DNA from: a virus
Reading direction: 5' to 3' (one strand)
Length of the DNA: 44,680 nucleotides
UHGV virus genome: UHGV-0024713
Below the pieces are notes generated by a model. That model was not told where the DNA came from. It saw only the letters and a program-made list of their open reading frames with translations, and made no database searches. Made by a program: the position numbers and the translations under genes. Positions 1 to 40,683 of this stretch are shown here, one piece after another (the first letter of the stretch is position 1; the number at the start of each line of letters is the position of its first letter).

Positions 1-9
1 AAAAAAAAA

Positions 10-34
10 GCGCCGAAGCAAAATGCGACGGCGC
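10..34 (-). terminator. Terminator-like hairpin (GCGCCG-N13-CGGCGC) with A9 on its 5' side on the + strand, so it is hairpin plus U-run only when read on the minus strand
   Basis: Perfect 6-bp inverted repeat preceded by aaaaaaaaa at 1-9; no T-run follows on + strand. Confidence 0.25.
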
Positions 35-105
35 TAACCAATAAGAGACAATGAGACGGGGGTATTATTACACGCGTGCGCGCCCGTTTCAATATTCCAA
101 AGGAG

Positions 106-134
106 TTGACACCCTGCGGTTTTAGGTGTAGTTT
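106..134 (+). promoter_or_regulatory. sigma70-like promoter candidate upstream of 166..495
   Basis: TTGACA at 106-111, 17-nt spacer, TAGTTT at 129-134; GGAGA RBS at about 154-158. Confidence 0.35.
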
Positions 135-165
135 CGTTGGTCATTAACCAACCGGAGACAGAACA

Positions 166-495
166 ATGAATATCGACGACGCAATCGAAATGTTAACTAA
201 GACTGTTTGCAGTGAGACTAGCCGGTCATGGGCGTATACCGATGCCGTGGGTGCGGTGCTATTTGAAATCGAACGTCTGCGACTTACCGAAAAAGAATTG
301 CGCGCGAAGCTGGAATTACTCAACGGTACGGCAGCCAGCAAGCTGCAAAAGCACAATGAAGAAATGGAAGAATACAAAAAACAGGTTATCCGTCTACGTG
401 AGGAAGGTAAATCCTGGGCTATGATCGCCGAGCTAACCGGAATCAACCAGAGCACCGTGCGCTCCTGGGTACGCAATAATAAAACTTCCAAATAA
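166..495 (+). CDS. Small DNA-binding protein with coiled-coil centre and C-terminal helix-turn-helix; putative regulator
   Basis: 109-aa ORF with RBS; C-terminal segment SWAMIAELTGINQSTVRSWV has HTH character; antisense ORF 144..491 is low-complexity. Confidence 0.5.
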   Translation: MNIDDAIEMLTKTVCSETSRSWAYTDAVGAVLFEIERLRLTEKELRAKLELLNGTAASKLQKHNEEMEEYKKQVIRLREEGKSWAMIAELTGINQSTVRSWVRNNKTSK

Positions 496-499
496 GGCT

Positions 500-2770
500 A
501 TGACCATGAGTTTAATTAAATTCGCCGTAACAAGACCCGCTAAAAAAGGCGAAAAAGCCAGGGCGGAAAACTTCCAGATGACCACCGATGAATTTTTCGA
601 ATTTATCAATGACGCGAAAGAAATCTCCTCGGTGCATATCAACAAGACCGAGGATAAAGCCGAGTATGCGCGCCGCAAGCGTAAGGCCGATGGCATCGTA
701 GCGTATACCAGTGATGGCTTACGCCGCAAGACCAGCGCGGTGGACCGCTCGATCCTGTTCTTTGATATTGACCGCACCGACACTCGCACCTTGCGCCGCT
801 GCCGTAAGGCTTTCATCGACGCGGGTCTGGAACACGTATTTCACACCACTACCGGCGACCGCCACCCGCTGAAAGGAGGCACGCGTTGCGCTCGCTTCCT
901 GGTACTCACTGACAAGCCTGTACCGGCTGAAGACCTGGGCCGCGTCCAGTATGCACTATTACACCAACTGGGGCTGTCAGATGTGGACTTCGACGATTGC
1001 ACGAAAGACACAAACCGCCTTATGTACCTGCCTCACCAGCAATCGGTTGTTAAGTGTCACTATGGCAAGCGCGCCCGCGTCCGTCGTCTGCTCCGCCTGG
1101 CTGACAAGCTGGGGGTTGAGAAAGAGGAAGTTCGCCGCGAACTGACCCAGGGCGACGACGCAGTGGCAGACGGCATTCTGGACTGGTGCTTCCAGGCAGG
1201 ATTCGAGGAGTTATCTTCCGGTCGCGGTTATGAAGTGCCATGCCCTAACGAACACCTGCACAGCGGCGAAGGGTCGACGGCTATCATGGTCAAGGATGGC
1301 GAGATCCGTTTCAAGTGTATGCACACCGGCAACGAGTGTTGCTCGGAGCTAAATAGACACCAGCACCTGGCGCTACGTCTCATCGGGATACCGGACCACC
1401 TGAACGTCGAGCCACACAATATGTCCCGTAAGCAAATCGCCGCCATCCTGCCAGGTCTGGACGACGAGGAAGTCGAATCCTTATATGATCACATTGTTGA
1501 TGCGGTTGGCGACGGCGAAGAATACGGCGTGTGCACCGATGCGGATCTGGATAACGAGCCGGTCGCACTATTCAGTAAGCACGACCCGATTATCGAGGGG
1601 TTGATTAACTTTAAATCGACCTGGTACATGGCGGGTGAGTCGAATATCGGTAAATCGTTCTACGTGCTGGGCCAAATGGGCGCTGTTGCCGCCGGTATTC
1701 CGTTCGGCGGTGCGAAGGTTGTCCAGTCGCATTGCTTCTATTTCGATGCGGAAGGTGGCGAAGCCTCCCACCAGCGTAAGGAAGCATTGCAGATCAAATA
1801 TGAGCACGACCTGGACAAGCTGCACATTATCGACCTGCAATCTCGCGGCTGGGATATCACCAGCAAGTCCGGTTTGCGTGAAGTTATCAGCTTCATCAAC
1901 CGCACCGCTAACGGCGAACCGGTTGGCCTGGTGGCGTTCGACTCCCTCAACCAGACTGTTGCGCTGCGGTCTGCCGATGCTAAACCGTTTGACGAGAACA
2001 ACGCCAGCGATATGGGTGAAGTGGTCAAAGCGCTGAAGGCCATCGCGGAAAATACAGGTGGCAGTGCGGGCGTCATCCACCACCCGGCTAAAGGTGCAAA
2101 CGGCAGCAGAACCCCACGCGGGTCCGGCGCGCTGCATGGTGCTGTCGATTCTGCGTTCTTCCTGGAACAGCCGGACGACAACCAGCCCGGACAATTGAAC
2201 CTGTATCATGAGAAGTCACGTAACGGCATCAAGCAAGCGCCACGCGGCTTCGTCCTGCTCAAGTGCAAGGTTAAGGTGGATCTCCGCAAGTCCGAGGCGT
2301 TCGAGGCGCACCAGTCCACCAGCACCGGGCCAGACTTCGGCGACGTGGTCGCCGGATGGGACGTCAAGCCGATTGCCTCCACGCCACGCGACGAGACTCT
2401 CTATCTCGTACCGGTTGCCCTGGCACCGTTCGCTATTGAACAGGCGAAGGCAGCGGGCAAAGCAGCAGTTAAGGAAGAGAACACCGCCGGACCGCGCAAC
2501 GAAAAAGAGAAAGTGCTTTATGCGGCCCTGGAAAAACTGATGGAAGATAACCCGGACCATACCGGATTCAGTAAATCGGCAATTGTCCGCCAGGCGGGAT
2601 TGGCAAAAGGTGGCACATCGACGAAGGCAATCGACGATATGGTCGAGCGCGGCGTACTCGGTTTTTATACAGACCCACACACCGGGGCCATCTATGGGTC
2701 GTCTAATATCGTCATAAAAACGAATATACCCATCACGCTTTCAGCGACCGATGACGACCTGAGTGATTAG
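500..2770 (+). CDS. Primase-polymerase / helicase fusion (PrimPol-like N-domain, Zn-ribbon, P-loop helicase core, C-terminal extension)
   Basis: N-terminal ILFFDIDR acidic motif; Cys/His cluster CPNEHLHSGE...KCMHTGNECC; Walker A GESNIGKS, Walker B-like LVAFDSL, VIHHPAKG...GSGALHGAVD typical of RepA/DnaB-like P-loop helicases. Confidence 0.7.
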   Translation: MTMSLIKFAVTRPAKKGEKARAENFQMTTDEFFEFINDAKEISSVHINKTEDKAEYARRKRKADGIVAYTSDGLRRKTSAVDRSILFFDIDRTDTRTLRRCRKAFIDAGLEHVFHTTTGDRHPLKGGTRCARFLVLTDKPVPAEDLGRVQYALLHQLGLSDVDFDDCTKDTNRLMYLPHQQSVVKCHYGKRARVRRLLRLADKLGVEKEEVRRELTQGDDAVADGILDWCFQAGFEELSSGRGYEVPCPNEHLHSGEGSTAIMVKDGEIRFKCMHTGNECCSELNRHQHLALRLIGIPDHLNVEPHNMSRKQIAAILPGLDDEEVESLYDHIVDAVGDGEEYGVCTDADLDNEPVALFSKHDPIIEGLINFKSTWYMAGESNIGKSFYVLGQMGAVAAGIPFGGAKVVQSHCFYFDAEGGEASHQRKEALQIKYEHDLDKLHIIDLQSRGWDITSKSGLREVISFINRTANGEPVGLVAFDSLNQTVALRSADAKPFDENNASDMGEVVKALKAIAENTGGSAGVIHHPAKGANGSRTPRGSGALHGAVDSAFFLEQPDDNQPGQLNLYHEKSRNGIKQAPRGFVLLKCKVKVDLRKSEAFEAHQSTSTGPDFGDVVAGWDVKPIASTPRDETLYLVPVALAPFAIEQAKAAGKAAVKEENTAGPRNEKEKVLYAALEKLMEDNPDHTGFSKSAIVRQAGLAKGGTSTKAIDDMVERGVLGFYTDPHTGAIYGSSNIVIKTNIPITLSATDDDLSD

Positions 2771-2781
2771 TTTTTGCGCGC

Positions 2782-2826
2782 ATTGGTTGCCATTTTGAGT
2801 GTTTTTATCTGGCCGTATTGGTTGCC
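2782..2826 (+). promoter_or_regulatory. Direct-repeat pair of ATTGGTTGCC motif (copies at 2782-2791 and 2817-2826)
   Basis: Two identical 10-mers 35 bp apart directly after the primase-helicase stop; same motif recurs at about 10 other intergenic loci. Confidence 0.4.
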
Positions 2827-2876
2827 GTGTAGTGTGAGTATAGTGAATAGTTATGCAATAAATCTGCATAAACTAA

Positions 2877-2978
2877 GCGGGACAAAAAGCGGGACGGACC
2901 AGGGGCGGGACAAAGCGGGACAGCACCCCTGTCCCGCCCCGGATGACGCGGCCTGGCGGGGAGCGGGACAGCGGGACA
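2877..2978. repeat. Iteron array A: six direct GCGGGACA octamers plus one inverted copy, including palindrome GCGGGACAGCACCCCTGTCCCGC (2915-2937)
   Basis: Octamers at about 2877, 2889, 2905, 2915, 2963, 2971; inverted TGTCCCGC at 2930-2937; no credible ORF. Confidence 0.7.
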
Positions 2979-2984
2979 GCACCC

Positions 2985-3034
2985 CAGTCTTTCAGACTAG
3001 ACGGGGGGTCTGGCACCCCCCTCGTCTGAGACTG
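2985..3034. other. Long G/C-cored stem-loop A (CAGTCTTTCAGACTAGACGGGGGG-loop-CCCCCCTCGTCTGAGACTG), near-identical copy at 20035-20083
   Basis: Imperfect extended inverted repeat with G6/C6 core; partner differs mainly in the loop. Confidence 0.6.
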
Positions 3035-3097
3035 CATAAAATCCTGGACTGCATAACACACGGCAACATGATGCAAAGTGCGGTCGTCGATGAACTA

Positions 3098-3107
3098 GGC
3101 AACCAAT
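3098..3107 (-). promoter_or_regulatory. Single reverse-oriented copy of the recurring motif (GGCAACCAAT on + strand)
   Basis: Matches reverse complement of ATTGGTTGCC within the non-coding hub. Confidence 0.3.
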
Positions 3108-3188
3108 GCGAGTTGCAGAATGGTGGGTGAAAAATGCAGTTTGCAGTTACAGCAGATAGCGATCAACTTTTTCATACGCATGATTAAT

Positions 3189-3229
3189 ATTGGTTGCGTC
3201 CGCCCTGGCACCTTGCTATATTGGTTGCA
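3189..3229 (+). promoter_or_regulatory. sigma70-like promoter with embedded motif pair upstream of 3248..3556
   Basis: -35 TTGCGT (3194-3199) inside motif copy 1, 17-nt spacer, -10 TATATT (3217-3222) overlapping motif copy 2 ATTGGTTGCA (3220-3229). Confidence 0.5.
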
Positions 3230-3247
3230 CACCAACATGAGGACTGA

Positions 3248-3556
3248 ATGATGAAAGCGATTATCTGGAATTACTCCCTAGCCGTGGCAAAGTTGGACGA
3301 AGCGAAAGCACTGAACGGCAACATCGACCAGGCGCTTCAGGTTGCGATACTGGCCCACCAATCAATCCGTGATGCGCTCTACCGCATGGGCGCCAGCATG
3401 GACGAACTGAGGCCGTTGCGTATGGCAATCCACGAATACGCGCGGGCATTCTCCCGTGAGCGCCTGGCGTATCGCTTCGGTATTGGCGATAGGGCAGTGA
3501 CAAACGTCGCCAGGATTAAAGCCCAGCGCGAACTATTCGACCAGCTTGCGAAATAA
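3248..3556 (+). CDS. Hypothetical early protein (102 aa)
   Basis: ORF directly downstream of the promoter candidate; no recognisable motif. Confidence 0.5.
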   Translation: MMKAIIWNYSLAVAKLDEAKALNGNIDQALQVAILAHQSIRDALYRMGASMDELRPLRMAIHEYARAFSRERLAYRFGIGDRAVTNVARIKAQRELFDQLAK

Positions 3557-3565
3557 GGGGCCAAA

Positions 3566-3835
3566 ATGGGCCGCAGACGCGCTAAACAGCTTTCGTGGAG
3601 CATCCCACTGCATTGCATACGAATATGGGCTAAGAATGCGACTGAGGGCGATTCTGTATTCTGGTGCTATCGCGACGACGTGAAGCCACTGACGCAGACT
3701 CGCTACTTGCACCAGTTCGCGGCACAACACGATTTCAGGGTGCGGACTTCCTTGCAACCAATGGGAATACGTATTACATTACGCCGGAAGCCCGCCGTTG
3801 AGCGGGTAGGAAAACACTGGAGACTGAGCAAATGA
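3566..3835 (+). CDS. Hypothetical protein (89 aa)
   Basis: ORF in the same-strand early block, 10 nt after the preceding gene. Confidence 0.45.
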   Translation: MGRRRAKQLSWSIPLHCIRIWAKNATEGDSVFWCYRDDVKPLTQTRYLHQFAAQHDFRVRTSLQPMGIRITLRRKPAVERVGKHWRLSK

Positions 3836-3966
3836 TGATAGGCGGATTCTCGCAGGAGTTTATCTACCTGCATATGTGCGAACTTGACTACAAACAAAAC
3901 GGCATCGCTACGGTATGCGATGGCGACACGAAGACTATCGAAGAGATTGAGGAGACAGAGCAATGA
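3832..3966 (+). CDS. Small acidic hypothetical protein (44 aa), translationally coupled
   Basis: ATGA overlap with upstream stop and with downstream start at 3963; not in ORF track because under 60 aa. Confidence 0.35.
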   Translation: MMIGGFSQEFIYLHMCELDYKQNGIATVCDGDTKTIEEIEETEQ

Positions 3967-4580
3967 AATTACTATTCCGCCGTAAGCACGATGGTCGCAT
4001 CCTGAAGCCGATCCAGACCCTGGATTCCTACGTCCGCTTACAAAACGCGGCAGGCAATCGGGTCTGGTGGGCAGTGAAAAACAAGTTGCCGGAAAACTTT
4101 GAGGTACTCACTCACGATATTGAGCGCGGCGATGTGTTGCGTGATATTCGCGACGGTAGTATGTGGGTCGTCGAGTATGTCGGGCGTCATGGCCTGCGTA
4201 TGCAGAACCGCAAGGATGGCGTAGCGGGTATGACGTACTTCGGGCTAATCCACTACGAGCGCGTGGGGCGCAAATACAGCCTGCGTGCCCGCCAGCCGCA
4301 TGAGCGCGCGAACACCGAAGCGGATGCAGTTAACCGAGTAACGCGTGAGGTCGCACAGAAGACGCGCGTAGAGTTCCGCAAGTCACAGCCAGCCTATGCA
4401 ACCTACGACGCGAGCAAAGTGATGGAGCCGATCCGCCAGGCAACGCGTGAAATCATCAATCGCTTTGATGCCGTGACGAATGCACAGCGCCATGCGCAGG
4501 AATACGGCGTTGGATTCATCCGGGTAGAACGTGACGGCAGCATGAAAGCCATCGACCCGCGCTCGGTGATTCTGAAATGA
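3963..4580 (+). CDS. Hypothetical protein (205 aa)
   Basis: Long ORF, coupled to neighbours; no recognisable motif. Confidence 0.55.
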   Translation: MKLLFRRKHDGRILKPIQTLDSYVRLQNAAGNRVWWAVKNKLPENFEVLTHDIERGDVLRDIRDGSMWVVEYVGRHGLRMQNRKDGVAGMTYFGLIHYERVGRKYSLRARQPHERANTEADAVNRVTREVAQKTRVEFRKSQPAYATYDASKVMEPIRQATREIINRFDAVTNAQRHAQEYGVGFIRVERDGSMKAIDPRSVILK

Positions 4581-19766: not shown

Positions 19767-19770
19767 TGAA

Positions 19771-20029
19771 GCGGGACAAAACGGGACGTCCCGTTTTGTC
19801 CCGCCCCTGCAAAACTGCATATACAATCACTTCAATTGCATAAACTCAAAGCGGGACAGGCGGGACACCCCGTTTTGTCCCGCCCTGTAAATGTGCATAC
19901 CTATGCAGATCTCGTGCATAAAGTAAGCGGGACAGAAAGCGGGACAAACAAGGGGCGGGACAGAGCGGGACAGCACCCCGTCCCCGCCAGTGCTGCCGCG
20001 GTTTTTAGTCGATCGGGACAGGCGGGACA
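19771..20029. repeat. Iteron array B: about 10 GCGGGACA-type octamers in both orientations, including a perfect 34-bp palindrome (19771-19804)
   Basis: GCGGGACAAAACGGGAC/GTCCCGTTTTGTCCCGC; octamers at about 19851, 19860, 19927, 19939, 19955, 19965, 20013, 20022; 19915-19988 is near-identical to 2865-2940. Confidence 0.7.
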
Positions 20030-20034
20030 AACCA

Positions 20035-20083
20035 CAGTCTTTCAGACTAGACGGGGGTCAACGGCCCCCCTCGTCTGAGACTG
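20035..20083. other. Stem-loop B, second copy of the 2985-3034 element
   Basis: CAGTCTTTCAGACTAGACGGGGG-tcaacgg-CCCCCCTCGTCTGAGACTG; stems conserved, loop differs. Confidence 0.6.
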
Positions 20084-20151
20084 AATAAGGTTTGTTTTAA
20101 AATCGCTGATACAATGTCAATCGGCAACTGCATAAAAAAGGGGACTGCATA

Positions 20152-22794
20152 ATGGCAGATCAAGCGGCAGGCATCACGCTCAAGGTCGATGCCTCACAAG
20201 TAAAAACGGCGAATACCGCGCTGGACTCGTTCGCGCAGAAGTCTGAGAACACCGAACGGAAAGTTAAGAAATTAAACGACACCCTCGGCAACTCGAAAAA
20301 GGTAACGAGTGACGCCGCTGGCGGGATGGAAAAGTTAGCGACTGAATCGCAGCGCGCCGCCGACGGCATGACGAAACAGGAGCGACTTGCCAACCGGTTA
20401 GGAATGTCGACCAAAAACCTGGGCTTTGCCTCACGCAACGCCGCATTCCAGTTACAGGATATCGCGGTTACGCTTGAGATGGGTATGCCGGTGCACCGCG
20501 TTATGCTTCAGCAGTTACCACAGCTTACTGGGGCGTTCGGTGGATTGGGTAACACGCTGCGTTATGTTGCTGGCTTCCTCGGTCCGGTAGGGATCGGCAT
20601 CGCAGCACTAACGGCAACGTTAGGCGTAGGAGTGGCGGTTACGTCCCGTGCCGAAAACCAGGTCGCAGCGCTTAACAAGACGCTGGCGCTGTCGGGTAAT
20701 ATCTCCGGCCTCACTGCAAACCAGATCCTGGTGCTATCCGAGAACGCCGAGCGCATGGGCGGGTCCTTCCGTAAGACGCGTGACACAATCCAGGCGCTGG
20801 CGGCGGCGGGTGTGAAAGCGGGTGCGGACTTCGGCACGCTGGCGAAAGTGGTGAATGACTTTGCGAAGGCGTCTAATCAGCCGATCTCTGACGTGGTTGA
20901 ATCCATCTCTAAATTGTCAAACGACCCAGTGGGCGGACTGCGTGCGCTGGCGGATAAGTATCATGTCGTAACCGAAGCGCAGATCCAGCAGGTGCAATCG
21001 CTTGTAGATATGGGGCGTGAAACGGACGCGGTTGCTCTGGCTAACAAAACCGCCGCCGCGTCGTTCGCCAGCATGACCAACGATGTCAAGGCCAACATGG
21101 GTACGCTTGAGCGGTCGATGAACGTCGTTACATCAGCAGCGAAATCTATGTGGGATGCCATCCTGGATGTGGGCCGCGCGCAGTCATCTAATGAGTCCGA
21201 GATGAAAGCGCGTGAGTCCTTGCAGCGCATGACCACGGCTTACTATGCCGAGATGAAAGCGGTAAACGCTGCCGGTGGGGTGGTGACCGAAGCGCAAAAA
21301 GCGCGTATTAACATGCTTTACAGCGAACTGGTCGCCCAGGAAAAGGTGGTGGCGACACTTACCCTGCGCAACCGTGCCGAGCGAGACAACGCCAGCGCCG
21401 CTGACGAAGCAGCAAAGGCGAACGAGGAGGCAAACCGCACCGCCCGCGACCGCGCCGCGTTTGAGAAGGAGTTCGCAACCAACGCGAAGAGGCGCGCCGA
21501 CGAGATCGCCCGCCTCAATTTGCTGAATAAGCGGGGCGTGATTAGCGAAAAAGAACTCGCCGAGGCGGTGAAGCAGGTAAACGAGCGCTACAAAGACCCG
21601 GCCCCGAAAAAGGCCGCGGCTGTTCGCGTGGATTCCGGTATGAAAATGCTGGAGGTTGCACGTAGCGAACTGGCACAGCTTCGAGAATCAGGCAAGCAGA
21701 TCGAAGCCAACGCGTCGACGCAGACCCGAGCGCAACGCGCTCAATCAGCACTTAACAAGCTGATCGCAGATCATGAACAGTTAATCGCAGCAAGCAAAGA
21801 AAGAGCACTAACGGCAGCGGAAAAGCAGCAAATTGCGGGTTTCGAGGCGGTTAAATCGGTACGCGAGCAGATCGTCGAAGAAGCCAAATTGCTGGACGCG
21901 AAAGAGAAGCAGATCAAGGCACATGCCCAGGTCGAGGCATTCATCAAGAACCAGAACGCCGAGCTAAAAGCCACCGCGGCGGGCTATGCGCTTTCTACTC
22001 GCGAAGCGGCTAACCTGCGCGAAGAATTGCAGCTAATTGACCGCCTTCAGCGTGTTGGTGCTAACGATACCGATATCGACAAGGCGGTGTCTAAGCTGCG
22101 TGAAGTTCAGGACGCACAGACCGGTGCTAACGCCTCGCTATGGGATGGATTCAGTCGCGGGCTTCGCGATAGTGTGGATGAAATGGGTAACGGCTATACG
22201 CAGATGACGTCACTCACAAAATTCACGTTCGGCGCTATGCAGGACACGATGAACGAGTTTTTCGAGACTGGCAAGCTGAACGCAAAGGATATGGTTAAGT
22301 CCATCCTGAGCGAATTAATCAAGCTGGCTACATCGCAGGCGTTCAAGTCCATCGTTAGCGCTTTCGGTGGCGACGGCGGCAAAAACGGATTGTTCGGCGC
22401 TATCTTTTCCGGCCTGACTAAGAACGCAGACGGCGGAGCGTACGCAGGGGGCAACCTCGCGGCCTATTCGGGGCAAGTGGTAAGCCAGCCCACCTTTTTC
22501 AGTTATGGCGTCCAGGCGTTCGCTAAGGGCGCAGGATTGATGGGTGAGGCCGGACCTGAAGCCATCATGCCACTGAAGCGCGGCCCGGACGGCAAACTTG
22601 GAGTTGCCGCTGCCGGAGGTGTCGGGGGAATGATTGTAACGACCAACGTTAACATGGGGACCGGTAAGACGGATACCAGTGTTAGCGGACCAGACCCGCG
22701 CACCGCGCAGGCGTTCGGAAAGCAAATCACCGAGTCTGTCAAGGCCGAGATCGTGAAGGCGACGAAACCGGGTGGTGTACTTTACAAACGATGA
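20152..22794 (+). CDS. Tail tape measure protein
   Basis: 880-aa Ala/Gln/Lys-rich helical protein after the G/T chaperone; Gly-rich C-terminal region. Confidence 0.9.
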   Translation: MADQAAGITLKVDASQVKTANTALDSFAQKSENTERKVKKLNDTLGNSKKVTSDAAGGMEKLATESQRAADGMTKQERLANRLGMSTKNLGFASRNAAFQLQDIAVTLEMGMPVHRVMLQQLPQLTGAFGGLGNTLRYVAGFLGPVGIGIAALTATLGVGVAVTSRAENQVAALNKTLALSGNISGLTANQILVLSENAERMGGSFRKTRDTIQALAAAGVKAGADFGTLAKVVNDFAKASNQPISDVVESISKLSNDPVGGLRALADKYHVVTEAQIQQVQSLVDMGRETDAVALANKTAAASFASMTNDVKANMGTLERSMNVVTSAAKSMWDAILDVGRAQSSNESEMKARESLQRMTTAYYAEMKAVNAAGGVVTEAQKARINMLYSELVAQEKVVATLTLRNRAERDNASAADEAAKANEEANRTARDRAAFEKEFATNAKRRADEIARLNLLNKRGVISEKELAEAVKQVNERYKDPAPKKAAAVRVDSGMKMLEVARSELAQLRESGKQIEANASTQTRAQRAQSALNKLIADHEQLIAASKERALTAAEKQQIAGFEAVKSVREQIVEEAKLLDAKEKQIKAHAQVEAFIKNQNAELKATAAGYALSTREAANLREELQLIDRLQRVGANDTDIDKAVSKLREVQDAQTGANASLWDGFSRGLRDSVDEMGNGYTQMTSLTKFTFGAMQDTMNEFFETGKLNAKDMVKSILSELIKLATSQAFKSIVSAFGGDGGKNGLFGAIFSGLTKNADGGAYAGGNLAAYSGQVVSQPTFFSYGVQAFAKGAGLMGEAGPEAIMPLKRGPDGKLGVAAAGGVGGMIVTTNVNMGTGKTDTSVSGPDPRTAQAFGKQITESVKAEIVKATKPGGVLYKR

Positions 22795-38113: not shown

Positions 38114-38392
38114 CTACGCGACCAATTCAGCAACCAATAAATCACAGTCGGCTATGCTGTCGATGACGCGAACGTCAGCGCCTCGGCGGGCCATTCGCTC
38201 ATGTTCACGTACCTGGTGCGGCTTCGGTTTTCCTCCTGGGCGCTTCACTTCGACGAACACTATTTTGCCGTTGATGATGATAATCAGGTCGGGCGCACCT
38301 ACGCGCCCCTCCCAGGCCATTTTGCGGCAGAATCCGCCTACCTCTTTCACCCGTCGCATCAGGTGTCTTTGGATCTTGCCCTCGGGTGTCAT
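38114..38392 (-). CDS. VRR-NUC domain nuclease
   Basis: PDLIIIINGKIVFVEVKRPGGKPKPHQ (PD...EVK) and size typical of VRR-NUC; start overlaps the polymerase stop. Confidence 0.7.
   Translation of the reverse strand: MTPEGKIQRHLMRRVKEVGGFCRKMAWEGRVGAPDLIIIINGKIVFVEVKRPGGKPKPHQVREHERMARRGADVRVIDSIADCDLLVAELVA
38118..38138 (-). promoter_or_regulatory. Promoter candidate with motif pair inside the 3' end of the VRR-NUC gene
   Basis: Minus strand ATTGGTTGCTGAATTGGTCGCG then TATAGT; -35 TTGCTG, 17-nt spacer. Confidence 0.4.
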
Positions 38393-40683
38393 TATTTCCT
38401 GTACCTGTACATGATGTCGCCTTCCGCGGCAAGCGGGAAGCCTTTCGCCCAAACCGGCAGGTCGCACATCAGCGCGCACAACTCCTCGGTTGTGTAGTCG
38501 TCAGTGTCCGGAACTTCGGTGATCAGTTCATCGTGTACCGACAGTACGATCTCATAGCCAGCGGCCTCAACACCCGGCATGGACCATGCGAGAATATCGC
38601 GGCACAGCGCCTGCACTATGTTTTCCGTCAGTTTGCCGCCGTAGGTATACTGGAAGCCCCACTGGCGCGTAGTCTGATTCTCGCCCTGGTATTTGATGCG
38701 GGTACTGGTGCGCTTCTTGCCGGTGTCTTCGGCAATCTCGGTCGTGACAGACAGCGCAATGCCTGGATAACTCATAATACGCCCCGACGGCAACTCAATT
38801 TTAAGCCACCACCCCGCTGCGTTCGGGTCGTCGCGCTCCTCGTCGAAGGTTGGGTCATGCTTCGCCTTCGTGCGAACAATCTTGAGCGCTTTCTTGCCAT
38901 CAGGGCGAACGTGCGCGCCAGCCCAGTATGCCTTGCCAGGGTTGCGAATTGCGCATAACACCGCATACTCAAGCTCGGCCCAAAATGCTACGGTCTTCGG
39001 GTGGGCCTCACGCCACATGCGTTTGATCGCGTCGCATGTCAGCCACACGTTTTTAGGCAGTATGTAGGTTGGACGCTCGTCTTTCTTGCCAGGCTTCGGC
39101 GGGCGCTTCGCTTCGTTAATGCGAGCGTACTCATAACCACGCTTCGCCGCCGCCCAAATGTGATCCGGGAATGTGCCCTTCATGACGTCTGCCATCGCGT
39201 ACAGGTCCAGGCCCAGGTTTTTAGCGAACTGCAAGAACGCCGCGACGCCGCCACCGTAGCCCAGGCCAAGCTCGCAAGCCTTCCCGATCTGACGTAAATC
39301 CTTGCGGTTGGCTTTAATGTATTCCGGATCGAGGCCGAACATCTTACCGGCAGTCTCACAATAAATATCGCGACCGGCCCTAAACACCATTAGCGCGGTT
39401 TTCTCGCCAGCGATCCAGGCAAGCCCGCGCCCTTCCACGTTGGAGTAATCCGCTACGACAAACTTCTTACCCTTAGCAGGGATAATGCACCCGCGAACGG
39501 TTGAGGCGGTTAACTTCGATATGTCATACGCCCAGTGCGCGGTGCCGCGTAACAGGGAGTTGATACCGTTGGTGAGCATGTGCGACCGGACCCAAAACGA
39601 GACGTCGCTTTCTCCTTCGCGGCGTTTAATCTTCCCTTCGTGGTCGTCACTATAATCGCCGCGCGCCAGGTTTTGAGGCTGAAAGCCTTTACCAGCCCAG
39701 CGCAGCGTGCGCTTTGCTCCTCCATACTGAAGACAACCACGGCGGCGACCGTCGGCAGACAGACCATTTACGAGCGGATTGTACTTAGTCGATGCCGTTG
39801 ATGACGCACCGAGACGCATCTCAATCAGCGCTTTGCCCTCGTCGGGGAAGTCCGGGTCTTCAAGCAAATCGTTCAGCGTGGATTTCTGCGCGTTATGGAT
39901 CGTGAACGCCGGGGCGATATCACGCAGGATTGGCAGGAAGTCGTTGCCTGTTAGCTTACCGCCGAACCGCTCCCATGCCTCCTCCTTCAATTCTTCCTTA
40001 TGCGCCTGCACCGCCTTGATCGCGGCGTTCGCCAGGTCAACGTCCACATGGAAGCCGCGGTCATTAATCAACTGGTCGATGAGCAGGATTTCGTCTTCTT
40101 TCGGAGAGTTGCCCCAGTCCGGTATGCGCCAGTAGACTTCGCGCATTGCCACAATATCCAGCGCGGCGTAGCGCAGGAATTTGGCCCACTCTTCAGGGTG
40201 TGTCTCGCGCGTGTAACGGCGGATTTTGTAGGTTTTAGGGGTAGGCTTACAGAACCGTTTGATCAGCGCCTTGCCGGCCTTATCCTTTGCGTGTTCCGCG
40301 TCAACGCCCAGTACCTGACACTGCATATCGAGGCTACCCGGCAGCGCGTGGCGGAATGCCATAATCATGGTATCCTCGATCTGGCTTACCGGCAGGTCGA
40401 TGCCCCACTTCTCACGGATAACCAGGCGGTCGAACAGGAGGCCGTTAGCCATCACTATTTTAGCCTTCTTGCGCGATACCCGGCGCAGCGCCTTGCGTAG
40501 TTCGCGCGGCATTGTGGGGGACTCAGTGGCATCCCATGTCTGCACGCGGCCCTCGTCGATGGCGTAGGTGCAAATCATAATCTCGGTTGATGGGTGTTCT
40601 GCGTAGGCGTACGCGCCTACTTTCTTCAGGTCCACACCGCTAAATGTCTCGGTGTCGAGAAACAGGCGTTCGAAGTCTTTCAT
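38392..40683 (-). CDS. Family A DNA polymerase with 3'-5' exonuclease domain
   Basis: Exo I FLDTETFS; motif A DYSNVEGR; motif B RQIGKACELGLGYGGG; motif C VLSVHDEL. Confidence 0.9.
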   Translation of the reverse strand: MKDFERLFLDTETFSGVDLKKVGAYAYAEHPSTEIMICTYAIDEGRVQTWDATESPTMPRELRKALRRVSRKKAKIVMANGLLFDRLVIREKWGIDLPVSQIEDTMIMAFRHALPGSLDMQCQVLGVDAEHAKDKAGKALIKRFCKPTPKTYKIRRYTRETHPEEWAKFLRYAALDIVAMREVYWRIPDWGNSPKEDEILLIDQLINDRGFHVDVDLANAAIKAVQAHKEELKEEAWERFGGKLTGNDFLPILRDIAPAFTIHNAQKSTLNDLLEDPDFPDEGKALIEMRLGASSTASTKYNPLVNGLSADGRRRGCLQYGGAKRTLRWAGKGFQPQNLARGDYSDDHEGKIKRREGESDVSFWVRSHMLTNGINSLLRGTAHWAYDISKLTASTVRGCIIPAKGKKFVVADYSNVEGRGLAWIAGEKTALMVFRAGRDIYCETAGKMFGLDPEYIKANRKDLRQIGKACELGLGYGGGVAAFLQFAKNLGLDLYAMADVMKGTFPDHIWAAAKRGYEYARINEAKRPPKPGKKDERPTYILPKNVWLTCDAIKRMWREAHPKTVAFWAELEYAVLCAIRNPGKAYWAGAHVRPDGKKALKIVRTKAKHDPTFDEERDDPNAAGWWLKIELPSGRIMSYPGIALSVTTEIAEDTGKKRTSTRIKYQGENQTTRQWGFQYTYGGKLTENIVQALCRDILAWSMPGVEAAGYEIVLSVHDELITEVPDTDDYTTEELCALMCDLPVWAKGFPLAAEGDIMYRYRK

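Follow-up and report, generated by a model that had tools for sequence, protein, structure and literature searches.

A phage helicase-primase with an archaeo-eukaryotic primase fold, a RepA-like helicase core and a C-terminal winged helix precedes lineage-specific repeats that may mark a replication origin

The viral genome UHGV-0024713, analysed over its whole length of 44,680 nucleotides and referred to here as the window, carries on its plus strand a small gene for a helix-turn-helix (HTH) protein at 166..495 (109 amino acids; the first gene of its operon and the ortholog of HK578 gp45) and then, at 500..2770, an open reading frame (ORF) of 756 amino acids, the subject of this analysis. Beyond its stop lies a non-coding gap with a cluster of repeats of the word GCGGGACA and a hairpin. 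The gene is located beside the replication module, which encodes PolA, an Enc34-type single-stranded DNA-binding protein (SSB), a SNF2 helicase and a PD-(D/E)XK nuclease; the phage-encoded family-A polymerase is at 38392-40683. A sequence-only reading had described the ORF, exactly as it is present in the ORF list, as a fusion of a PrimPol, a zinc-binding segment and a P-loop helicase with a C-terminal extension, and had named its product the prime candidate reader of the repeats. This observation and its interpretation are essentially right, and to them are added here the structural assignment of three unannotated segments, the recognition that the array has a co-evolving partner module elsewhere in the genome, and comparative reasoning, short of proof, that favors the helicase-primase over its HTH neighbor as the reader.

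Two in-frame ATG codons stand at 500 and 506, with a Shine-Dalgarno sequence (AAGG) 2 nt before the first and 8 nt before the second. Because of this spacing, and because the 99% identical homolog P0001 is 754 amino acids long and the alignments of many phage relatives begin at query residue 3, the true start is probably M3 (ATG-506), giving a protein of 754 amino acids; residue numbers used here count from ATG-500. The ORF is real, and its product matches PHROG 3228, 'replicative helicase-primase', over its full length with 1149 bits. At the nucleotide level, 161 phage records match positions 400-3300 of the window, 140 of them at 90-95% identity, and most of the listed matching records name the gene 'replicative helicase-primase' or similar. 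Judged from these sequences, the window is a Dhillonvirus-type E. coli siphophage, the protein being 97-99% identical to that of many Dhillonvirus records, 88% identical to that of HK578, and 43-46% identical to those of Tsm2, Shemara and phiEap-2. Family members include Dhillonvirus HK578 gp46 (the ortholog of this protein), SO-1 gp48 and EK99P-1 gp50, with further carriers in Cornellvirus (Shemara, FSL SP-031), Serratia phage Tsm2 and Enterobacter phage phiEap-2. The protein is not new: it belongs to an already annotated, widespread phage family of an established architectural class, so that while the protein and domains first described are real, the existing annotation of the gene family had been missed. 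Public records of the family give a name only, with no annotation of the primase fold, the zinc module, the winged helix, the acidic tail or the cognate repeats. A literature search on this helicase-primase family found no biochemical study, and an NCBIfam scan of the whole protein gave nothing usable. The plasmid collection returned a single match, 34% identical, on a record of 44 kb, itself probably a phage genome, and we found no evidence for plasmid use of the replicon.

A single polypeptide almost certainly combines an archaeo-eukaryotic primase (AEP) domain, a zinc module, a RepA-like helicase, a winged helix and an acidic tail, and a role as replicative helicase-primase is highly likely. 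The AEP catalytic domain occupies residues 1-205 (500..1114, plus strand). In an AlphaFold model of residues 1-345 built with 18 homologs, this domain has a predicted local distance difference test (pLDDT) score of ~90 throughout, and a Foldseek search with the model retrieved S-2L PrimPol (E 8e-5) and chain 9ycv_C of the herpes simplex virus helicase-primase complex (6e-4), the AEP fold being assigned by two independent structure comparisons. The motifs that define AEPs are the metal-binding DxD of motif I (hhhDhD), the nucleotide-binding motif II (sxH) and motif III (hD/E) (PMC4538821). Motif I, ILFFDID, lies at residues 85-91 (ILFFDIDR at 85-92), and neither D89 nor D91 varies among 32 homologs (down to 45% identity) or among 14 more distant relatives. 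Motif III consists of the invariant D165 followed by R173 and P178, which are conserved in the family and in distant relatives. Motif II is non-canonical, reading T117-G-D120-R-H122 against T/S-G/S-H in aligned relatives, with the His two residues later and an invariant Asp in its column. A Pfam search with residues 1-207 at E <= 10 found no family, including Prim-Pol PF09250. An exhaustive search with residues 1-344 recovered merely 25 clusters among 1.84 billion representatives, and the distant ones bear PriCT_2 plus VapE, DUF5906, DUF3987 or AAA_25 helicase modules. Bacterial and phage AEP proteins commonly have such a mix of domains. By its modelled fold and by motifs I and III, the N-terminal domain is a member of the AEP superfamily with predicted priming activity. 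A non-primase fold would have undone the original assignment, and the fold that was found is that of a primase. The term PrimPol was over-specific, as there is no Pfam Prim-Pol match, motif II departs from the canonical form, and the phage owns a family-A polymerase; by sequence the protein is not a strict member of the Pfam Prim-Pol clade of pRN1 ORF904 and BFK20 gp43. Because the phage encodes its own polymerase, DNA polymerase activity of the AEP domain would not be required.

The AEP domain is also a mosaic segment. When the domain at 500-1114 of the window was compared with L002:36014-38275 and L012:1501-3744, HK578 was 60% identical to the window there, 95-100% identical in the zinc, helicase, linker and winged-helix segments and 75% identical in the 16-residue tail; L012 was 34% identical in the AEP domain, 94-100% in the same four segments and 81% in the tail. 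The breakpoint falls at a linker of low model confidence, about residues 209-219. This pattern in the sequences suggests that the primase domain is exchanged as a cassette among near-identical phages.

The zinc-binding module and an accompanying helical region span residues 220-335 (1157..1504, plus strand), with C248, H254, C273 and H275 as the likely ligands in a C-x5-H...C-x-H pattern. In the AlphaFold model, residues ~243-275 form three short strands bearing these four residues, followed by helices, with pLDDT of 65-82 per 10-residue block. All four, together with C281, H287 and H289, are invariant in the family (32-homolog alignment), and the module recurs in distant relatives with other helicase classes, in the slot that PriCT_2 takes in other relatives. 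Pfam found nothing usable in residues 201-345 at E <= 10. The Cys/His segment seen at the outset is therefore a conserved module, kept in distant relatives. The helicase core, residues 350-600 (1547..2299, plus strand), is of the RepA-like RecA-fold P-loop type, with Walker A GESNIGKS at 379-386, Walker B D481 and HHPAKG at 527-532, all three invariant in the family. Pfam AAA_25 (PF13481) matched residues 359-533 with E 1.2e-19 and 71.2 bits against a cut-off of 27. This match and the Walker motifs bear out the RepA/DnaB-like core first proposed. The best specific sequence match in the PDB was RSF1010 RepA (1g8y) at the HH..K motif, a weak one with E 0.53 for the single sequence and 0.08 for the profile; matches to BurrH and to homeobox proteins were spurious. 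The helicase of this protein matched none of the superfamily 3 (SF3) families D5_N, DUF5906 and VapE, although relatives of the N-terminal domain carry such SF3 modules, and Pfam scans of the protein gave no match to Toprim, zf-CHC2 or Prim_Zn_Ribbon.

Beyond the helicase core, ~156 residues (601-756) make up the C-terminal extension. Its first part is a linker, residues 601-664 (2300..2491, plus strand), with a PRDETLxLxPV...F motif at 629-644 followed by an Ala/Lys-rich segment; P624, P629, R630, T633, L634, L636, P638 and F644 are invariant columns, and model confidence is low when the linker is modelled apart from the helicase. It is followed by a winged-helix domain at residues ~665-740 (2492..2719, plus strand), composed of helix H1, a short strand, H2 (692-699), H3 (705-717) and a two-stranded wing. 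This domain of ~75 amino acids is near neutral overall, and its H2-turn-H3 face carries a net charge of +2 to +5 in nearly all lineages. Pfam gave nothing usable for residues 651-756 at E <= 10. The suggestion that about 130 C-terminal residues could form a DNA-binding domain thus holds for the type of fold, but the extension is longer than supposed and only ~75 of its residues adopt that fold. The protein ends in an acidic tail (2720..2767, plus strand; final residues D-D-D-L-S-D) in which D753 and L754 are invariant across all lineages. The very end, window positions 2750-2767 (residues 751-756), is kept as D-[DE]-D-L-x-[DEN] in every lineage, and by its sequence the tail is reminiscent of tails that dock polymerases or SSBs. 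The linker motif PRDETLYLVPVALAPF (window 2384-2431, residues 629-644) is near-invariant in all lineages down to 44% identity, a conservation that exceeds that of the winged helix; our guess is that it serves as a subunit-bridging arm or a partner-docking peptide.

The window has 19 occurrences of the word GCGGGACA where 2.05 are expected, a ~9-fold excess that none of 100 shuffles reached, with six copies at 2877-2978, ten at 19771-20029 and three scattered singles. The first copy starts at 2877, 107 bp past the helicase-primase stop. The array had thus been correctly placed about 100 bp after the gene, but it is only one of two clusters, and the larger had been missed. Cluster A (2876..2979) holds six exact copies, five direct and one inverted, plus one 7/8 copy at 2889; the copies stand mostly in pairs 8-12 bp apart, in mixed orientation, with start-to-start spacings of 12, 16, 10, 15, 33 and 8 bp. 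The inverted copy forms a hairpin with 11-bp arms (2902-2912 / 2930-2940). Just upstream lies an AT-rich stretch of 30% GC (2840..2876), a candidate unwinding element, and downstream a conserved 50-nt imperfect hairpin (2985..3034; minimum free energy -28.4 kcal/mol). Cluster B (19770..20030) lies 17 kb away inside the tail operon, between a tail assembly chaperone gene (Phage_TAC_4) and an 880-amino-acid tape-measure ORF, and contains ten exact copies plus variants; a cluster occupies the same position in HK578 and LM40P1. It too mixes direct pairs 8-12 bp apart with inverted, hairpin-capable copies, and beyond it comes the ~50-nt hairpin again (20035..20083). Both hairpin copies read CAGTCTTTCAGACTAGACGGGGG...CCCCCCTCGTCTGAGACTG, with minimum free energies of about -27 to -28 kcal/mol, and the hairpin is present in all examined Dhillonvirus-like loci that reach that far, with a variable loop and a few compensatory changes. 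An Rfam search of the post-gene gap found no family, only a sub-threshold microRNA match taken as chance.

The 380 bp of non-coding DNA (19770-20151) that interrupt the tail operon midway contain, besides the ten GCGGGACA copies and the second 50-nt hairpin, three palindromic hairpins built from the repeats; the equivalent region of HK578 has been partly labelled a terminator by its annotators.

In its clustered and over-represented short word, its position beside the candidate initiator gene and its adjacent AT-rich segment, cluster A has the layout of an iteron origin, and an iteron-like layout built from other words was found in eight other lineages or loci. The spacing is not that of classical iterons, which are in helical phase with units of ~17-22 bp; here, the units are 8-9 bp and of mixed orientation. 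Units of 8-9 bp resemble the short P4-type sites more than classical plasmid iterons. On this evidence, the odds lean slightly toward an origin marked by the repeats. The repeat and hairpin modules could instead be transcriptional elements at operon boundaries (terminators, insulators, promoters or operators) that mark the end of the early operon, since both clusters sit in intergenic gaps between co-directional genes, hold GC-rich palindromes, one of which was called a rho-independent terminator by the HK578 annotators, and are surrounded by regulatory-looking CTGCATAA and ATTGGTTGC motifs. A terminator, however, has no need of six to ten direct copies of an 8-mer, the stems lack T-runs after them, and it is the word, not merely the pairing, that is kept within a lineage and replaced wholesale between lineages. 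We regard this transcriptional account as quite unlikely, although it could coexist with origin function. A scan of positions 1-4000 for sigma-70 promoters and terminators gave counts not above shuffled expectation, with none in the gap. GC skew was rejected for origin mapping, as a single trend reversal near 31 kb, attributed to a change in gene orientation, appears to dominate it. Literature searches returned only unrelated primer sequences for the GCGGGACA word and no origin or initiator description for Dhillonvirus and its Guernseyvirinae relatives.

The related loci allowed a comparative analysis of which protein reads the repeats. The gene order of small DNA-binding gene, helicase-primase and non-coding gap is kept in the related loci examined, the gap being ~400-580 bp in those that extend far enough, and each lineage has its own clustered repeat word at the start of the gap, directly past the helicase-primase stop. 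This word is GCGGGACA in the window, HK578, L012, L005 and L015; ACGGGACA in LM40P1 (L011, L016); GTGTGGCA in L006 and L010; GTGTGCCA in L013; GGTGCCA in L014; ACTCGCAA in L007; TGTGCGGAA, as palindromes, in Tsm2 and L009; and GGGGGAGA in Shemara. Dhillonvirus, Tsm2 and L007 also have a second, distant cluster made of the same lineage-specific word. Both clusters of LM40P1 have moved together toward ACGGGACA, in 4/5 and 5/9 copies compared with 0/6 and 0/10 in the window, and at the sequence level this joint shift points to one trans-acting reader.

One possible reader is the small HTH protein, which would bind GCGGGACA and recruit the helicase-primase as RSF1010 RepC does for RepA and RepB'. 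It is co-transcribed with the helicase-primase, the HK578 genes gp45-gp46 having been described as an operon, and a deletion in the gp45 promoter gives partial escape from OLD in that phage (bioRxiv 10.64898/2026.07.10.737580). The informative contrast came from Dhillonvirus-like loci whose helicase-primases are equally distant from that of the window (66-70% identity). The HTH of the small protein (Pfam HTH_23 / Sigma70_r4_2, residues 65-105) is nearly identical, SWAMIAE[IL]TGINVSTVRSWVRNAK, in the GCGGGACA-type loci L005 and L015 and in the GTGTGGCA-type loci L006 and L010, and it is diverged, SWNQIAEMTGINRSTIRQWAK, in HK578 and L012, though both share the GCGGGACA of the window. In a column-wise test on this protein, no column partitioned with the word. 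The small protein was rejected as the reader on the grounds that its HTH does not co-vary with the word, and we consider it very improbable in that role; its conserved HTH better fits the dispersed motif ATTGGTTGC, present in all Dhillonvirus-like loci examined, and it is probably a regulator rather than the GCGGGACA reader.

The winged helix of the helicase-primase behaves differently from the neighboring HTH. Residues of its helix 2 go with the word: the six GCGGGACA/ACGGGACA loci all have FSKSAI, both GTGTGGCA loci have FSRRAI, and FSARQI and FSKAAI belong to L013 and L014, respectively. In the column-wise test, nine columns partitioned with the word. Residues 601-756 account for eight of these, and the winged helix for four (N667, S693, T706, S735), compared with 3, 2 and 0 winged-helix columns for control partitions, a difference that is not significant with ~five independent lineages. 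Because the word differs by lineage directly after the gene and the HTH of the sole neighboring DNA-binding protein does not co-vary, the case for this protein as prime candidate reader is strengthened; it is still a candidate, and on the sequences compared we would give it an even chance. The protein could also be a fork-only helicase-primase like T7 gp4, with another phage or host protein reading the repeats and the winged helix doing another job. Its RepA-like helicase is of the class found in fork helicases, the column test did not reach significance, and the exclusion of readers covers only the immediate neighbor. Yet the repeats follow the gene directly in every examined lineage with a word that changes with the lineage, the conserved C-terminal winged helix with its basic H2-H3 face would serve no evident purpose in an enzyme acting at the fork alone, and no separate initiator gene was recognized among the scanned ORFs of the replication module, all of which leave the fork-only account rather unlikely.

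Several known systems share parts of this arrangement. P4 alpha and pRN1 ORF904 each join, in one polypeptide, a primase, a helicase and a winged helix at the C-terminus for which origin binding has been proposed or shown (PMC2777425). P4 alpha has its primase at the N-terminus, its helicase in the middle and its winged helix at the C-terminus, the domain order seen here. P4 alpha binds short repeats in two separated clusters, ori and crr, a pair that parallels clusters A and B. In pRN1, a small repressor gene is followed by the replication protein gene and then by an essential stem-loop of ~100 nt in the downstream non-coding region (PMC4234260, PMC2777425), so that the orf56/ORF904 locus and this one agree in gene order and in where the structured element lies. 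ORF904 carries a Prim-Pol domain (PF09250) and an SF3 helicase of 3'-5' polarity, and no iterons were found in pRN1; here, in contrast, there is no Pfam Prim-Pol match, the helicase is RecA-fold and RepA-like, and iteron-like repeats are prominent. Because its helicase is RepA-like rather than SF3, the protein, judged by its sequence relationships, is not homologous to P4 alpha and ORF904, though it would function in the same way. In RSF1010, the corresponding functions are divided among three proteins, RepC, RepA and RepB', the last of which uses ssiA/ssiB and lacks a zinc motif (PMC4538821). The protein here looks as if the RepA and RepB' functions had been fused to a RepC-like one, with a zinc module in addition, and the conserved hairpin is a putative counterpart of ssiA/ssiB. 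T7 gp4 also brings together a zinc element, a primase and a RecA-fold helicase, in its case a hexameric one, in a single chain. Its primase is of the DnaG/TOPRIM type, its acidic C-terminal tail contacts the polymerase, and it has no origin-binding domain. The present protein differs in its AEP-fold primase, its appended winged helix and, by Pfam, the lack of TOPRIM or a DnaG-type Zn-ribbon family; because there is no TOPRIM domain, its sequence marks it as not a T7 gp4-type enzyme.

Further observations weigh against an initiator that reads these repeats. Motif II of the AEP domain is non-canonical, as described above; the spacing of the repeats is irregular; parts of the clusters are palindromes annotated earlier as terminators; and a replication origin inside a tail operon is unexpected. 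Covariation in the 50-nt hairpin is thin, with 3 pairs showing two-sided changes and a covariation term of ~0, and because of this the structure rests mainly on conservation and on the variable loop. Instead of a shared reader, gene conversion between the two homologous modules might account for the joint shift of both clusters in LM40P1. Helix 3 of the winged helix bears acidic residues (DDMVE), and the fold is a generic one that includes protein-interaction domains such as RPA32C. The winged helix might accordingly be a protein-protein module for bringing in polymerase, SSB or host factors rather than a DNA reader. Against this, nearly all lineages have a net positive charge on the H2-turn-H3 face, partners could already dock on the invariant acidic tail, and the winged helices of the functionally analogous P4 alpha and ORF904 bind DNA; such a module appears improbable to us. 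Taken together, we lean modestly toward a gene that encodes a self-contained replication initiator and fork enzyme, with DNA binding as its inferred property.

Initiation by such a protein may be pictured as follows. The winged helices of an oligomer would bind paired GCGGGACA sites, and the helicase ring would thereby load itself on the neighboring AT-rich DNA with no need of the host's DnaA, DnaB or DnaC. Unwinding would bare single strands, the hairpin possibly acting as a primase entry site like ssiA/ssiB of RSF1010; the AEP domain would make primers with the assistance of the zinc module, and the family-A polymerase of the phage would extend them, perhaps after docking on the acidic tail, as in T7 gp4. 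The second module of repeats and hairpin (19.8-20.1 kb) would be read by the same protein, either as a second origin or as a cis enhancer like crr of P4. A more speculative extension, which as a whole we hold to be doubtful, is that one polypeptide unites the RepC-like recognition, RepA helicase and RepB'-like priming of RSF1010 and fires from two repeat-plus-hairpin modules, one of which lies within the tail operon, whose conserved hairpins are ssi-type primase entry sites, that point changes in the winged helix and wholesale replacement of the 8-mer make replication specificity groups of phages that are near-identical otherwise, and that the AEP domain, with 34-60% identity in a protein otherwise mostly 94-100% identical, is swapped as a cassette under pressure from host defences, OLD among them, that sense the initiation of replication.

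Dhillonviruses and their Guernseyvirinae relatives are common phages of E. coli and Salmonella, represented in model collections (BASEL) and among therapy candidates. The locus offers them a candidate pair in which the initiator is the winged helix on a primase-helicase and the origins are the two GCGGGACA-plus-hairpin modules, together with a natural specificity series in which GCGGGACA, ACGGGACA, GTGTGGCA, GTGTGCCA or GGTGCCA stands at the same position in related phages. The layout of primase, helicase and winged-helix initiator would here be assembled a third time, from an AEP and a RecA-fold helicase rather than with DnaG or from an AEP and an SF3 helicase. HK578 mutants that escape OLD map to gp46 and to the gp45 promoter and were called replication-initiation related, and in lambda, OLD is reported to bind and sense hairpin-forming origin repeats (bioRxiv 10.64898/2026.07.10.737580). 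The palindromic repeats beside the gene are the obvious candidate trigger for OLD.

Other short motifs accompany the clusters. CTGCATAA motifs flank both of them, and TTGGTTGC occurs in 19 copies against 1.3 expected. ATTGGTTGC is dispersed over 13 sites (2782, 2817, 3099, 3189, 3220, 3754, 14176, 30283, 33258, 35162, 35179, 38130 and 44647), in intergenic DNA and often as pairs 12-17 bp apart or within a palindrome (TTGGTTGCACACCAA, just upstream of the ribosome-binding site at 3240). It is found in all examined Dhillonvirus-like relatives whatever their GCGGGACA-type word, and this distribution makes it probably regulatory rather than origin-specific; it is likely an operator or promoter element and possibly the target of the small HTH protein. 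(C)TGCATAA motifs also flank both clusters (2864-2872, 3032-3040, 3049-3057, 19815-19822, 20129-20136 and 20146-20153), one copy overlapping the tape-measure start codon at 20152, and in HK578 the two corresponding regions hold 8 of its 13 TGCATAA copies. A (CGCACA)n microsatellite (L005:12590-12615) that is not in the window lies in the gap downstream of the L005 helicase-primase. Finally, in dozens of NCBI assemblies of Salmonella enterica isolates, contigs of 42-44 kb encode a 44%-identical Cornellvirus-type helicase-primase under the label 'AAA family ATPase' (P0026-P0103), which suggests that Cornellvirus-type phages are often carried by, or co-sequenced with, their Salmonella host isolates.

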